From: Escherichia coli
Lineage (GTDB): Bacteria > Pseudomonadota > Gammaproteobacteria > Enterobacterales > Enterobacteriaceae
NCBI RefSeq assembly: GCF_003790525.1
Contig: NZ_CP033635.1
Length of the DNA: 64,000 nucleotides
Direction: 5' to 3' (one strand)
Shown here piece after piece: positions 15,001 through 36,000 of this stretch. The position numbers were made by a program. Each line of letters begins with the position of its first letter. The first letter of the stretch is position 1.

Positions 15001-18000
15001 TTTCTCCGCCGGAAATTGCTCGAACTCTTCACGGAGCAGGCGACGCGTCTCTTCTGCCGCCAGGATTGAAGAACGCTGCCTTTGCGGATGATTTTTCGCC
15101 AGGCTCACAATATCGTGAAAATAACAGGCGGTTAAAATCACCAGCATATCGACATCGTCATCTGCCGCCAGCTTCTGTGCCGTAGCCCAGACGCGGCGAA
15201 AATGACACACGTCATGGGCCGCGTCCTGGTGCTGATGATGGTTTTTCAACCAGTTTTCGAACTGTGCCTGCCAGTGTTGTAAGTCCATACGCGCTCCGTT
15301 GCCAAAGAGTCGCCACCTTAGCAGTTTTTATTCATAGCGTCTGCTACGTGCGGGACGAGGTCGGGTGTACCAGGCAATGCTGCCTAACAATGCCCCGACC
15401 AGAGCCATAAATAAAAATCCGACCAGTGCCCCTAACCACTTTCCCGCGGTAGAGCCTAAATCGCTTTCAAATCCCGACACCGGGGCATCGGGGATCCGGC
15501 TCATCACCCAGATGTAACGCGCCATTGCCCAGACGAAATAGCCACACCATGTATAGAAAGCCCACAAAGCCAGTTTGCCACCAGGGCTGCGAGAGAGTCT
15601 CTCTTCCATCTTTGTCGAACCGTATTCCATTTTGAGATAACCCGGAAAATTCAGACTTAGTACTATTATGTGATAAAAGTCACATTTTTCCACATTGGAT
15701 GAGCCAGTCAAGACTCACTCATTTTTTGAACAAATAGATAATTTTTGCGCAACGGCAGTGAATACAGGAAAAATCGTTTTGAGCGATTTTATTTATCTTT
15801 GAGATCGGCTTTATTAATTCATTTAATCAATATATTAGCACTGAATACAATTATACCTTTTTATTTTTCTGTGTCATGATGCCTCCGTTATTAGCCTTTT
15901 ATCGTCTTGTTTATATTTTTTGGGCCGGCATGATGCCGGCTTTTTTTTATGCCTTCATTAATGTGCGCGTGATCACACCAGCCGTTTGGCACAACAATCA
16001 TTGATACCCCCTATGCTTCCGCTCAACTCATAACATATTGATATACATTTATAATTTTCATGAATATTTATATTTAGAATTCATAATCCTGAATTATATT
16101 AAATAGATTAGAAACATTTTGAAATCTTTTAAATACATTTGTTACATGTAATCTTTAAAATAAAATGAACTTCATAGAATAGTATCCAAATGTGCTTTTT
16201 TTTTGGATAACGGCACTTATTGATATATTCATGAAGATTATAATCACAAGGGAATACATAATGAAAAGAAAAGTTCTGGCAATGCTGGTCCCGGCGTTAT
16301 TAGTTGCTGGCGCAGCAAATGCGGCTGAAATTTATAATAAAAATGGCAATAAACTGGATCTGTACGGAAAAGTTGATGCTCGTCATACTTTTTCCGATAA
16401 CCCTGGCGATGACGGCGATGAAACTATCATCGAGTTAGGCTTCAAAGGTGAGACCCAAATTACAGATCAGTTAACTGGTTATGGTCAAGCACTGACCAAA
16501 ACAAAGGCTAGCGACACTGAAGGTTCTGATAATACTTATGTCAAACTTGCTTTTGCAGGTCTGAAGTTCGGCGAGATGGGCTCCTTTGACTATGGTCGTA
16601 ACTATGGTGTGATTTACGACGTTGAAGCCTGGACAGATATGCTTCCTGTATTCGGCGGCGACTCCTATACCTGGACTGATAACTTCATGGCAGGCCGTGC
16701 AAATGGGGTAGCTACTTACCGCAATAGTGATTTCTTCGGTCTGGTGGAAGGTCTGAACTTTGCATTGCAGTATCAAGGTAACAACGAAGGCAGCAATGCA
16801 GGAGAAGATCAAGAAGGTACTAAAAATGGTCACGAAGACGTTCGCTTCCAGAACGGTGATGGTTTTGGTCTTTCCACTTCATATGACTTTGACTTCGGTT
16901 TGAGCTTAGGTGCCGCTTACTCAAACTCTGACCGTACCAATTCTCAAGTAGCTCTTGGCGGGTATCACTACAATGAATACAGCAAATTTGCTGGTGGTGA
17001 TACAGCTGAAGCATGGACATTTGGTGCAAAATACGACGCCAACAATGTTTATCTTGCAATGATGTATGCTGAAACCCGCAATATGACACCATATGGTAAT
17101 GTGGGTATCGCAAATAAAACCCAGAACTTTGAAGCTGTAGCACAGTATCAGTTCGATTTTGGTCTGCGCCCATCTCTTGCATATGTTTATTCAAAAGGCA
17201 AAGACCTCGGCGGTAACGACTATAACAACAATGGTCATCAAGAGTATGTTGATCAGGATCTGGTCAACTATGTTGAAATTGGAGCGACCTACTATTTCAA
17301 TAAGAACTTCTCAACATATGTTGACTATAAAATAAACTTGTTGGATAAAGATGACGATTTCTATGACAACAATGGCATCGCAACAGATGACGTTGTTGGT
17401 GTGGGCTTAGTCTACCAGTTCTAATCAGCCAACGCGCCGCGGCGTGTTACTGTAAAACTTAACACTAGCCTGAGTTCGTCCCTCATCGAACTCAGGCTTT
17501 TTTATTGGCATTTTATCTCCCTCTGCGGCACGCGCAATTGCCAAAGCATATCGATACAGCACCTTACCCTGCCCCTGCTGGCACAATAACATCTACCAGC
17601 GACTCTTCCAGCCAACACCCAAATGCATTTCTTTATGAATTAATCTGCAACAAAACCGCCTCCCATATAGAAATATTTGCAAAAATAGTGCATGAAATAA
17701 GCTTTTTCTCTACCAATCCGGGATATAAATATTCATCAGCACCACAATATTCCACATCACTAAATCTCTCCCCGCCGCCCCGTACCTCTGATAATGGTCT
17801 AAAATCATTGAGGCCACTTGCGACGACGTTGCTCAATAAGGAAAATTTGGCGTGAATAATATTCAACACCAGTGCAGCATCATCATTACATACTTACACC
17901 CGCCGACTACCGCTTTCGATATATTGACTCAATTTTCCAGCCTGGTTAAAAATAGCGACCAGCTCAGTCGCAAATATAGTGACTACCCTAACTAAGCAAC

Positions 18001-33000: not shown

Positions 33001-36000
33001 GCTAGCTTTATCGCTGATCCATCGACTATCGCCGCCACCAACAGTGATTTAAGTACCTTAAAGGCAACGGTTGAGGATGGCAGTGGTAACCTGATCGAAG
33101 GTCTCACTGTGTACTTCGCCTTAAAAAGCGGCTCTGCCACATTAACGTCATTAACAGCGGTGACCGATCAAAACGGAATCGCGACAACAAGCGTGAAAGG
33201 AGCGATGACAGGTAGCGTCACGGTAAGCGCAGTCACGACCGCTGGTGGAATGCAAACAGTAGATATAACGCTGGTGGCTGGCCCGGCAGACACCTCGCAG
33301 TCCGTCCTTAAGAGCAATCGGTCATCACTGAAAGGGGACTATACCGATAGTGCTGAATTACGTCTTGTTCTGCACGATATATCAGGCAATCCGATCAAAG
33401 TTTCTGAAGGGATGGAATTTGTGCAATCAGGTACTAACGTGCCCTATATAAAAATTAGCGCAATTGATTACAGTCTAAATATCAACGGTGATTACAAAGC
33501 CACTGTTACAAGCGGCGGAGAGGGTATCGCAACGCTGATCCCTGTATTGAATGGTGTTCATCAAGCTGGTCTGAGTACCACAATACAATTCACTCGCGCA
33601 GAAGACAAAATAATGAGCGGTACAGTATCAGTCAATGGTACTGACCTACCGACAACTACATTCCCTTCGCAGGGGTTCACCGGGGCGTATTATCAGTTGA
33701 ATAATGACAACTTTGCCCCAGGAAAAACGGCGGCTGATTATGAGTTTTCAAGCTCTGCCTCCTGGGTCGATGTTGATGCTACCGGTAAAGTGACATTTAA
33801 AAATGTCGGCAGCAATTGGGAAAGGATTACGGCGACGCCAAAATCAGGAGGCCCTAGCTATGTATACGAAATCCGTGTGAAGAGTTGGTGGGTGAACGCC
33901 GGCGAGGCTTTCATGATATACAGCCTTGCTGAAAATTTTTGCAGCAGCAATGGCTACACGCTCCCCAGAGCAAACTATTTAAACCACAGTAGTTCCCGAG
34001 GCATCGGGTCACTGTACAGTGAATGGGGAGATATGGGGCATTACACGACTGACGCTGGTTTTCAATCAAATATGTATTGGTCATCTAGTCCCGCAAACTC
34101 AAGCGAACAATACGTAGTTTCCCTGGCAACAGGTGATCAAAGCGTATTTGAAAAGCTTGGGTTTGCTTATGCGACATGTTATAAAAACCTGTGATTTTCC
34201 GTTATAATTTCTTAAAGAGTGCTCCATTCGGAGCACTCTTTTTTACATTCCCTCTATAGAGCTTGGCCTTCTCTCACAGAAAATGAATAAATAAAACTGC
34301 TGCACCGCAAGAATCGCGTTCGATGTGACTATGATCGTATCCGGTGAGTACAGCTTTGATCCAAAGGCTGGTTTTCTGTGATGATTGACCAGCCTCAGAG
34401 TATTGATGACACCACCGTTCATAACAGATCGGCATTACTATGCATAAGTACTGTCTCATATTCTCGCCAAAACACTTTTTAATGCCTTTGCGAATTCATC
34501 CAGACTTATATTGTCAATTTTTTGCCCAACGACGACTGACTCCGAAACATCGGCCATTGCGGGCCATCGCGTTTTGTAATCAGCATAAATTGCAACAACG
34601 GGAGTATTATAGGCACTTGCCATATGTAATATTGAGGTGTCAGGAGTTATTGCGATATAAGCATCTTTTATGATTGCTGCTGAACGTTTAATCGAGGGTG
34701 ATAAGGATAAACGGTAGACATTATTATAACAATCCACTAATACCCTGGCTTTATCTTCCCCTTTTGGTCCATGAACGATCACTATTGGTATATCTGTTTC
34801 ACTTTGAATTTTTGCTATTAGATTTTCTGCAATCGATAATGAAAATGTACGTTCCTGCGAGCTACCTTCTAAATTAAGCGCAATGTAAGATCCTAACGAT
34901 CGCATTTCCTCGCGCACCTCATCGAGTACATCCTCACTTAGTGGCAATTCATATATTGGCCTGACTGCTGGAAAACCCGCCTCACGCATCATAAATGCCC
35001 ATGTCATGGGTACAGGAGCCCGGAGATTCTGATCCATCCGGGACGCGTTCTTGCACAAAGGGGAGTAGCACTTCATGGTTAAACCAACAACCTGAAAATT
35101 CGTTTTTGCTTTCAACTGACTGATAAATATCATCGTTTTCAGGTTCTTTTTACGCATCGCCTCTATACAAAGATCCGGCGTACCGTATTTCTGTGTTATG
35201 TTCTTTGCTAAATCTTTTATTTCTTTTAATGTTGCGTGATCCTGCATAGTCATTGTGACTAATGTTAATTTAGTCTTTTCAAGTTTAAGTGCATTAAACA
35301 CTTCTAAATTAATTGTCGACGTAACAATTAAAAGATGCTTAATTTTATGCAATTCAAGCGCCCGAATAACAGGAAAGATGGCCATAGCATCGCCAATCTG
35401 GTCGGGAATATGGATGACAACAAAGTCTGTTTTTTCAATATTGAAATTATAAGCTTTATAATCGTAGTAACTAAATGCAATACGTCTCAACAATGATGCT
35501 AAAAACATACCTAACCTCGCCTCCCTACTGGTTATAATGCAATGCAGTCTATCAGACTCATCAGGGTGCCATTTTGTGCATATGCGGACTTTTATGTTTC
35601 ATATCTCTAACCTGTGGCTCCTCTGCTTAATCCTTAAACAACACCAGCAACTCCTGCGCTTTCATCTTCCATCGAATTTTTCATGTTGCCGCTAATCAGC
35701 CATAAAATCATTTGCAGATGCGCTCTGTCGAGGTAGTCTCATAAGGTTCGTTTATAGATCGACGGCAATGTGAGTTACCTTTTCCATACTAATTATAAAA
35801 AGACAGTACAAACAGGATCATTATGGACTCCACGCTCATCTCCACTCGTCCCGATGAAGGGACGCTTTCGTTAAGTCGCGCCCGACGAGCTGCGTTAGGC
35901 AGCTTCGCTGGTGCCGTCGTCGACTGGTATGATTTTTTACTCTATGGCATCACCGCCGCACTGGTGTTTAATCGCGAGTTTTTCCCGCAAGTAAGCCCGG

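Follow-up and report, generated by a model that had tools for sequence, protein, structure and literature searches.

The stretch of DNA analysed here (the window) comprises 64,000 nucleotides (nt; 64 kb) of an Escherichia coli chromosome, running from fliI through ansB, and contains two genes, yedS and yeeL, that are annotated as pseudogenes in E. coli K-12 MG1655 (b4496 and b4497, respectively). The former encodes a porin and the latter a protein of glycosyltransferase family 9 (GT9), and each is a single uninterrupted open reading frame (ORF) in the window (Table 1). Both points, the K-12 status and the intact frames, had been made in the initial annotation of this DNA, and they are borne out by the MG1655 annotation and by direct alignments. 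Homology supports both frames as real genes and not as chance ORFs. The gene order from dgcQ to shiA matches that of MG1655 by annotation comparison, and the genes neighbouring yedS and yeeL are 98.0–99.4% identical to their K-12 counterparts by nucleotide alignment. A 2-kb probe around the first gene of the window gave 100% matches to strains SMS-3-5, EC974 and others. Annotation was taken from the RefSeq record of EC974, which is in register with the window to ∼44 kb and places yedS and yeeL at the same coordinates, and for the remainder from KFu014, which is 100% identical there. Population counts refer to 5,426 complete genomes, and the intact or disrupted status of the two genes was sampled in about 10 genome records.

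Table 1. Features of the yedS and yeeL loci (positions in the window; aa, amino acids; GC, guanine plus cytosine; PGAP, Prokaryotic Genome Annotation Pipeline).
Feature	Position	Strand	Basis and remarks
rseX small-RNA gene, directly 5' of yedS	15858–15947	+	Rfam RF01401, 96.7 bits (gathering score 50)
rseX terminator	15922–15942	+	Terminator scan
yedS intergenic region and 5' leader, AT-rich (27.8% GC, 313 nt)	15948–16260	+	97.1% identical to K-12
Promoter-like hexamers upstream of yedS	16073–16100; 16139–16166	+	Sequence scan
yedS, intact general-diffusion porin, 387 aa	16261–17424	+	ORF; PGAP 'porin OmpC' (WP_000824375.1) in near-identical genomes; Porin_1
yedS signal peptide	16261–16323	+	Alignment; nt identical to K-12
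CTG (Leu161), site of the K-12 yedS TAG (codon 162)	16741–16743	+	Alignment
Base deleted in K-12 yedS	16920	+	Alignment
Intrinsic-terminator-like hairpin, 12-bp stem then T run	17467–17498	+	Terminator scan; 43 nt past the yedS stop
yeeL, intact GT9 protein, GT-B fold, 350 aa	34456–35508	−	ORF; WP_000477878.1, 'glycosyltransferase family 9 protein'
CAA (Gln235), TAA in K-12 yeeL	34804–34806	−	Alignment

The length of 387 aa for YedS follows from its ATG start; the mechanically called ORF (16192–17424) opens at an upstream GTG. The protein spans the whole of the Porin_1 model (PF00267, positions 1–337 of 337; residues 27–387; E = 1.8e-135), and about 48 solved porins match it with E values from 1e-88 to 1e-153. 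Its signal peptide, with the cleavage site read off the alignment, and its C terminus (...GLVYQF), with the terminal Phe, align with those of OmpC, OmpF, OmpN and PhoE. By its architecture YedS is a classical general-diffusion porin with 16 strands and a trimeric form, in the class of OmpC, OmpF and OmpN, and it has a Sec signal peptide. The pairwise alignment with MG1655 that the initial annotation had proposed as a check finds two lesions in the K-12 gene, an in-frame TAG at codon 162, where the closest intact allele has CAG, and a 1-nt deletion after nt 662 that shifts the frame, while the window ORF is full length. The order drpB-rseX-porin-hchA, together with flanks that are 96–99% identical to K-12, makes the window gene the positional orthologue of b4496. 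Orthology with ompC was ruled out, as the gene sits between drpB/rseX and hchA, not beside micF/rcsD, and its product shares only 63–64% identity with K-12 OmpC. YedS does pass the NCBIfam 'porin OmpC' model (519.8 bits versus 484), but this is a subfamily model and not an equivalog and the locus is not that of ompC, so that the PGAP name 'porin OmpC' is a generic one.

Comparison of the two sequences shows that the window gene cannot be described as K-12 yedS minus its lesions: the alignment excludes this, with 71.5% identity at the nucleotide level and 72% at the amino-acid level to the repaired K-12 protein. The divergence is confined to the interior of the coding sequence. The first 69 nt are identical to K-12, as is the whole interval from −60 to +69 around the start, the last 24 nt are typical of E. 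coli, and the downstream spacer is 96.3% identical to K-12. Five sampled alleles of the K-12 family share 86–96% of their amino acids with repaired K-12 YedS and 71–73% with the window allele. Measured against porin paralogues (69% between OmpN and OmpC, 71% between K-12 YedS and OmpN), the window-type and K-12-type YedS proteins are as distant from each other as separate paralogues are. The interpretation in the initial annotation is partly supported: broken in K-12 and intact here holds, but it had missed this deeply divergent allele lying between flanks of E. coli type. The ratio of non-synonymous to synonymous substitution rates (dN/dS) between yedS lineages is 0.05–0.10 (long-term values, 0.05–0.13), as purifying selection on the gene would produce.

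A search of 5.8 billion proteins placed the nearest relatives of window YedS outside its own cluster (1,297 members) not with E. coli YedS alleles but among the porins that the Enterobacter cloacae complex, Pseudocitrobacter, Trabulsiella and Lelliottia encode, at 79–82% amino-acid identity. The Enterobacter and Pseudocitrobacter genes are preceded, as in the window, by dgcQ-yodC-yedI-yedA-vsr-dcm-yedJ, and in Pseudocitrobacter also by drpB. Identity to E. coli OmpN is 69%, and the best solved relative is OmpK37 of Klebsiella pneumoniae (PDB 6v78), with 512 bits compared with ∼428 for OmpK36 and OmpC.

The residues that line the pore constriction (eyelet) were located by aligning the window protein to OmpF and are given in OmpF mature numbering. 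R42, E62, R82, D113, E117 and R132 are kept in all K-12-family YedS proteins and in OmpC, OmpF, OmpN, PhoE and OmpK37. Window YedS has E58 at the position of R42, L78 at E62, K95 at R82 and V130 at E117, and retains D126 (D113) and R146 (R132); its loop-3 motif reads PVFGG where canonical porins have PEFGG. The canonical constriction zone, in which R42, R82 and R132 face D113 and E117, is accordingly not found in window YedS, a deviation that lies inside the family and does not exclude the protein from it. V117 is common to the whole Enterobacter-group lineage, in which position 42 is Q or E, and the full E42/L62/K82/V117 pattern recurs in one Pseudocitrobacter and one uncultured-Enterobacter protein. 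From these substitutions we infer that the electrostatics of the pore would be altered, and the surface-loop profile, which bears on receptor and antigen recognition, presumably differs as well.

The 901-bp core of the window-type allele is present in 379 of the 5,426 genomes (∼7%), at ≥99% identity in all but one of these (378), and its carriers span unlike strains such as O111:H8, O22:H8 and SMS-3-5, the last of which carries the same allele as the window. Between the window and the O111:H8 strain 2009C-3675, 99 of 8,901 positions differ, yet the yedS coding sequence (1,164 positions) is identical throughout, although the average rate for the region predicts ∼13 differences there; the most divergent parts are the adjoining spacers (15500–16260 and 17425–18000). 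Since an identical allele thus occurs in differing backgrounds, between conserved gene ends and E. coli-type flanks, the pattern indicates that yedS has probably been exchanged recently between E. coli backgrounds by recombination, as a cassette. We put forward, tentatively and as a possibility that we consider rather unlikely, that window-type yedS encodes a functionally distinct porin and is more than an intact copy: a separate lineage, which the Enterobacter group also has, whose eyelet has been remodelled and which recombination has recently carried into unrelated E. coli backgrounds. If true, selection on permeability (to antibiotics or bile) or on recognition by phages, colicins or antibodies could account for the spread.

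Alternatively, the allele may be no old Escherichia lineage at all, having been imported recently from another enterobacterial genus by xenologous replacement of the gene interior. We regard this as a credible reading, though one with somewhat less than even support. The protein is nearer to the porins of Enterobacter, Pseudocitrobacter, Trabulsiella and Lelliottia (80–82%) than to any sampled E. coli allele, with two proteins of those genera sharing its rare eyelet pattern, and the divergence begins and stops sharply within the coding sequence. The near-invariance of the allele in 378 genomes, and its identity in O111:H8 despite ∼1% divergence of the flanks, also speak for import. The foreign genes sampled, however, match the allele at only 74–75% of nucleotides, with synonymous sites saturated, and therefore none of them is a recent donor. 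The GC content of the allele (43%) is like that of other E. coli yedS genes (45–46%) and unlike that of the Enterobacter and Pseudocitrobacter genes (∼50%), which agrees with a long stay in Escherichia, or in some low-GC donor outside the sample. The lineage may be an old polymorphism of Escherichia, or it may have been imported from such a donor.

Intact alleles are not peculiar to the window type. Each of the five wild K-12-family alleles sampled is uninterrupted (392–404 aa). The K-12 pseudogene core itself is matched exactly (≥99%) in 389 of the 5,426 genomes, a set rich in laboratory derivatives of K-12 or B, and K-12-type cores at 80–95% identity occur in roughly 2,000 further genomes. 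Separate lesions have disrupted the gene in further lineages: O157:H7 strains 4276 and Xuzhou21 carry a frameshifted yedS of the K-12 family (83% nucleotide identity to K-12), and in the mouse isolate IGC_RcoliRes_1.1 a window-type yedS is split by an IS3 element.

Upstream of yedS, the rseX gene is 96.7% identical to that of K-12. The porin gene would be transcribed from its own AT-rich promoter region 3' of rseX and would end at its own terminator. One paper labels yedS as 'ompS1' (PMC2731931); the Salmonella porin OmpS1 is quiescent, being silenced by H-NS and activated by LeuO (PMC4264507), and rseX is repressed by H-NS and StpA (PMC8313858). Because of the quiescence of OmpS1 and the H-NS repression of the adjacent rseX, we propose by analogy that YedS is probably a poorly expressed, 'quiescent' back-up porin that matters mainly once the major porins are lost. 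The spacer between yedS and hchA (17425–18015; 591 bp) is unusually divergent among strains. It contains a 116-aa ORF on the + strand (17505–17855) for which no Pfam match was found, and RefSeq 'hypothetical protein' calls on its minus strand vary (17633–17869 in EC974, a 136-aa one in O111:H8 and none in K-12). These hypothetical-protein calls are probably spurious.

The second gene, yeeL, is far closer to its K-12 counterpart. The two are collinear over 1,053 nt with no indels and 28 substitutions (97.3% identity), among them the CAA to TAA change at codon 235. The exact K-12 81-mer that includes this TAA is found in 765 of the 5,426 genomes (∼14%), including E. coli C and wild isolates, and in a giant-panda isolate carrying the allele the gene is annotated with an 'internal stop'. 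K-12 and this fraction of sequenced strains lost yeeL via one nonsense mutation. The CAA version of the same 81-mer, as in the window, is exact in 977 genomes, and the region is present in 4,987. The length of window YeeL is that of the dominant E. coli cluster (350 aa; 10,923 member sequences), while many truncated forms are found in Shigella sonnei. Intact yedS and yeeL are the usual state in wild E. coli. The statement that they mark the strain as non-K-12 is accordingly true but of little diagnostic weight, given that intactness is common, that the K-12 yeeL stop is itself widespread and that further lineages bear their own disruptions of yedS.

YeeL is 95–97% conserved within E. coli, and its homologues are confined to a narrow set of Enterobacterales (E. 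coli/Shigella, E. albertii, Pseudocitrobacter, Erwinia and Rosenbergiella) at 53–72% identity. One record in the nr database bears the name 'glutathione transporter [Rattus norvegicus]' but shares 75% identity with YeeL across 88% of its length; it is almost certainly bacterial contamination or mis-assignment in rat data. Over the long term, yeeL is under purifying selection, with dN/dS of ∼0.11 relative to Pseudocitrobacter. Relative to K-12, a codon-by-codon computation gives 0.21, compared with 0.02–0.06 for neighbouring genes, in keeping with weaker constraint in the lineage from which the gene was lost. The yeeL homologues of four genera each adjoin a gene for an MFS transporter (the window, 34456–37139; Pseudocitrobacter cyperus; Erwinia persicina; Rosenbergiella nectarea). 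This neighbour is shiA, divergently oriented, in E. coli and Pseudocitrobacter, and a different, co-directional MFS_1 gene in Erwinia and Rosenbergiella. The E. albertii gene lies elsewhere, near yciA, yciB and ompW, and has no MFS neighbour. The adjacency could be a coincidence or a functional hint.

Assignment of YeeL to GT9 rests on a partial family match and on the predicted structure. The Glyco_transf_9 model (PF01075) matches residues 232–321 only, with 29.5 bits against a cutoff of 22. The AlphaFold2 model (predicted local distance difference test score, pLDDT, of 84; predicted template modelling score, pTM, of 0.82) has the two Rossmann domains of the GT-B fold and in fold comparison is closest to solved GT9 enzymes; a loop at residues 141–162, which contains conserved cysteines, is modelled with low confidence. 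Across 22 aligned homologues, invariant positions are many and include two aspartates, D40 in the motif IGDAM and D290 in the motif PDTSILH. D290 aligns with VDTGLSH of WaaC in a hidden Markov model alignment, and the equivalence of the N-terminal D40 was judged by motif alone; the putatively corresponding WaaC residues, D13 and D261, are catalytic or binding positions. On this structural basis YeeL is an orphan soluble glycosyltransferase of GT9 fold, probably with an ADP-heptose-like donor and an envelope acceptor. It would transfer a heptose-type sugar from the nucleotide donor to that acceptor, the donor sugar being an extrapolation because the GT9 link is weak at the sequence level. Full-text literature searches found no functional study of yeeL, only uses as a neutral integration site in strain engineering and incidental mentions. 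The suggestion in the initial annotation that the two genes are candidates for variable surface functions fits YedS, a hypervariable porin, and is at best indirect for YeeL, a conserved and soluble enzyme.

Overall, we consider it very probable that the window is an ordinary non-K-12 E. coli chromosome bearing seemingly functional copies of two genes now decayed in K-12, those of the porin YedS and the GT9 enzyme YeeL. Several results weigh against this interpretation, the most general being that intact ORFs are by themselves no proof of function. For yedS, the promoter-like sites near the gene are no more numerous than in shuffled sequence (6 found, 7.9 expected), and the MicF–yedS duplex, tested for −60 to +30, has an energy of −11.1 kcal/mol, which does not surpass that of shuffled targets (mean −12.6), with a control duplex of MicF on ompF giving −27.4 kcal/mol. 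The functional effect proposed for the eyelet changes has a single source, the OmpF alignment. For yeeL, the protein falls well short of the equivalog cutoffs that NCBIfam sets for heptosyltransferases I, II and III (TIGR02193, 37.8 of 185.3 bits; TIGR02195, 19.6 of 134.6; TIGR02201, 16.9 of 170.2), a phmmer search of YeeL against PDB sequences returned no match at E ≤ 1, and a profile built from 22 YeeL sequences reached WaaC only at E = 0.12. As to regulation, the duplex energy lends no support to the reported MicF control, or to direct pairing of MicF at the yedS leader, at least in the −60 to +30 interval.

These points bear on a further alternative, namely that both ORFs are intact yet functionally irrelevant, being silenced or decaying, such that intact versus broken carries no phenotypic meaning. 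The repeated independent losses of yedS (the TAG and 1-nt deletion of K-12 and B, the O157:H7 frameshift and the IS3 insertion) would be expected of such genes, as would the yeeL stop allele in 14% of genomes, the many truncated forms in S. sonnei and the raised dN/dS of yeeL relative to K-12. The AT-rich, H-NS-type sequence upstream of yedS and its 'quiescent' Salmonella counterpart point the same way. The long-term dN/dS values of both genes are nevertheless low, the catalytic motifs of YeeL are invariant across genera and intact copies are the majority. In addition, there is a published phenotype: Warner et al. 2013 (AAC 57:1935; cited in PMC4048246) reportedly implicate YedS in carbapenem entry and susceptibility in a carbapenem-resistant clinical E. 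coli isolate. We therefore judge functional irrelevance of the two genes to be unlikely.

Much the weakest alternative is that YeeL is the dedicated glycosyltransferase of the neighbouring inverse autotransporter YeeJ, in the manner of Aah and TibC, which heptosylate the autotransporters AIDA-I and TibA, so that an intact yeeL would change the adhesin surface. The hallmarks of such bacterial autotransporter heptosyltransferases (BAHT) are an iron-finger motif, dodecameric assembly and heptosylation of Ser in the passenger domain. The adjacency in E. coli favours the idea, but yeeL and yeeJ are convergent and an adhesin neighbour is absent from all five other contexts (Erwinia, Rosenbergiella, Pseudocitrobacter, E. 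albertii and an Escherichia-like gut-metagenome contig), making the coupling very improbable, and it was ruled out as a leading idea on grounds of synteny and fold. In the Pseudocitrobacter genome, shiA and mtfA are the immediate neighbours of yeeL on its two sides, and yeeJ therefore appears to have been inserted next to asnT in E. coli. The window yeeJ (27118–34194) is intact and encodes a protein 97.1% identical to K-12 YeeJ. Its PGAP start lies 19 codons upstream of the annotated K-12 start (2,358 versus 2,339 aa), and the mechanically called ORF extends to a TTG at 27043.

Two other regions of the window were noted. After yodB, SMS-3-5 has a lambdoid prophage with an IS3 insertion, whereas the window has at this place (25079–27100) the tRNA genes serU and asnT, with mtfA between them, and then yeeJ, which marks the serU/asnT region as a variable hotspot of integration. 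Downstream of cobUST, at ∼48095–54960, lies a decayed island of pseudogene fragments, as annotated in the 100% identical KFu014. It contains an IS4 remnant, a frameshifted TonB-dependent receptor gene, an IbrB-like gene that an internal stop interrupts, next to it an intact gene for an IbrA-like PAPS reductase, and short pieces with the annotations thioesterase, ClbP and galactonate dehydratase. Beyond the island come an extra argH-like gene, two C4-dicarboxylate transporter genes, a GntR regulator gene, dcuR and a copy of ansB.

The K-12 status of both genes is already known from standard annotation, and the porin function of YedS in clinical isolates is published; to this extent the window documents the well-known fact that some pseudogenes are specific to the K-12 lineage and intact in most wild E. 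coli. For YedS the practical side is antibiotic resistance. The porin could serve as a back-up route of carbapenem entry after loss of OmpC and OmpF, the presence of an intact copy and its allele type may affect the evolution of resistance, and the PGAP label 'porin OmpC' can mislead automated calls of porin loss in resistance genomics. The deep allelic dimorphism of yedS, with its remodelled eyelet and signs of recent spread, is the modestly interesting part, and identification of the YeeL acceptor would fill a minor gap in the biochemistry of the E. coli envelope.

Among known systems, the YedS of Warner et al. 2013 reportedly represents the same locus and the same kind of protein, untranslatable in K-12 and intact in other E. 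coli. OmpN and OmpK37 have the same overall architecture as window YedS, but OmpN occupies a different chromosomal locus and both proteins retain the canonical R42/E62/R82/E117 where window YedS has E, L, K and V. Salmonella OmpS1, which H-NS and StpA silence and LeuO and OmpR activate, and YedS are both minor OmpC-like porins with AT-rich upstream regions, a likeness drawn from label and description. TibC and Aah share with YeeL a GT9-like fold and, in E. coli, the position of the gene beside that of an adhesin. WaaC, WaaF and the GT9 protein 3tov are only 12–16% identical to YeeL, whose gene lies outside the waa cluster and which, unlike these three proteins, has its own conserved cysteine-containing loop at residues 141–162.

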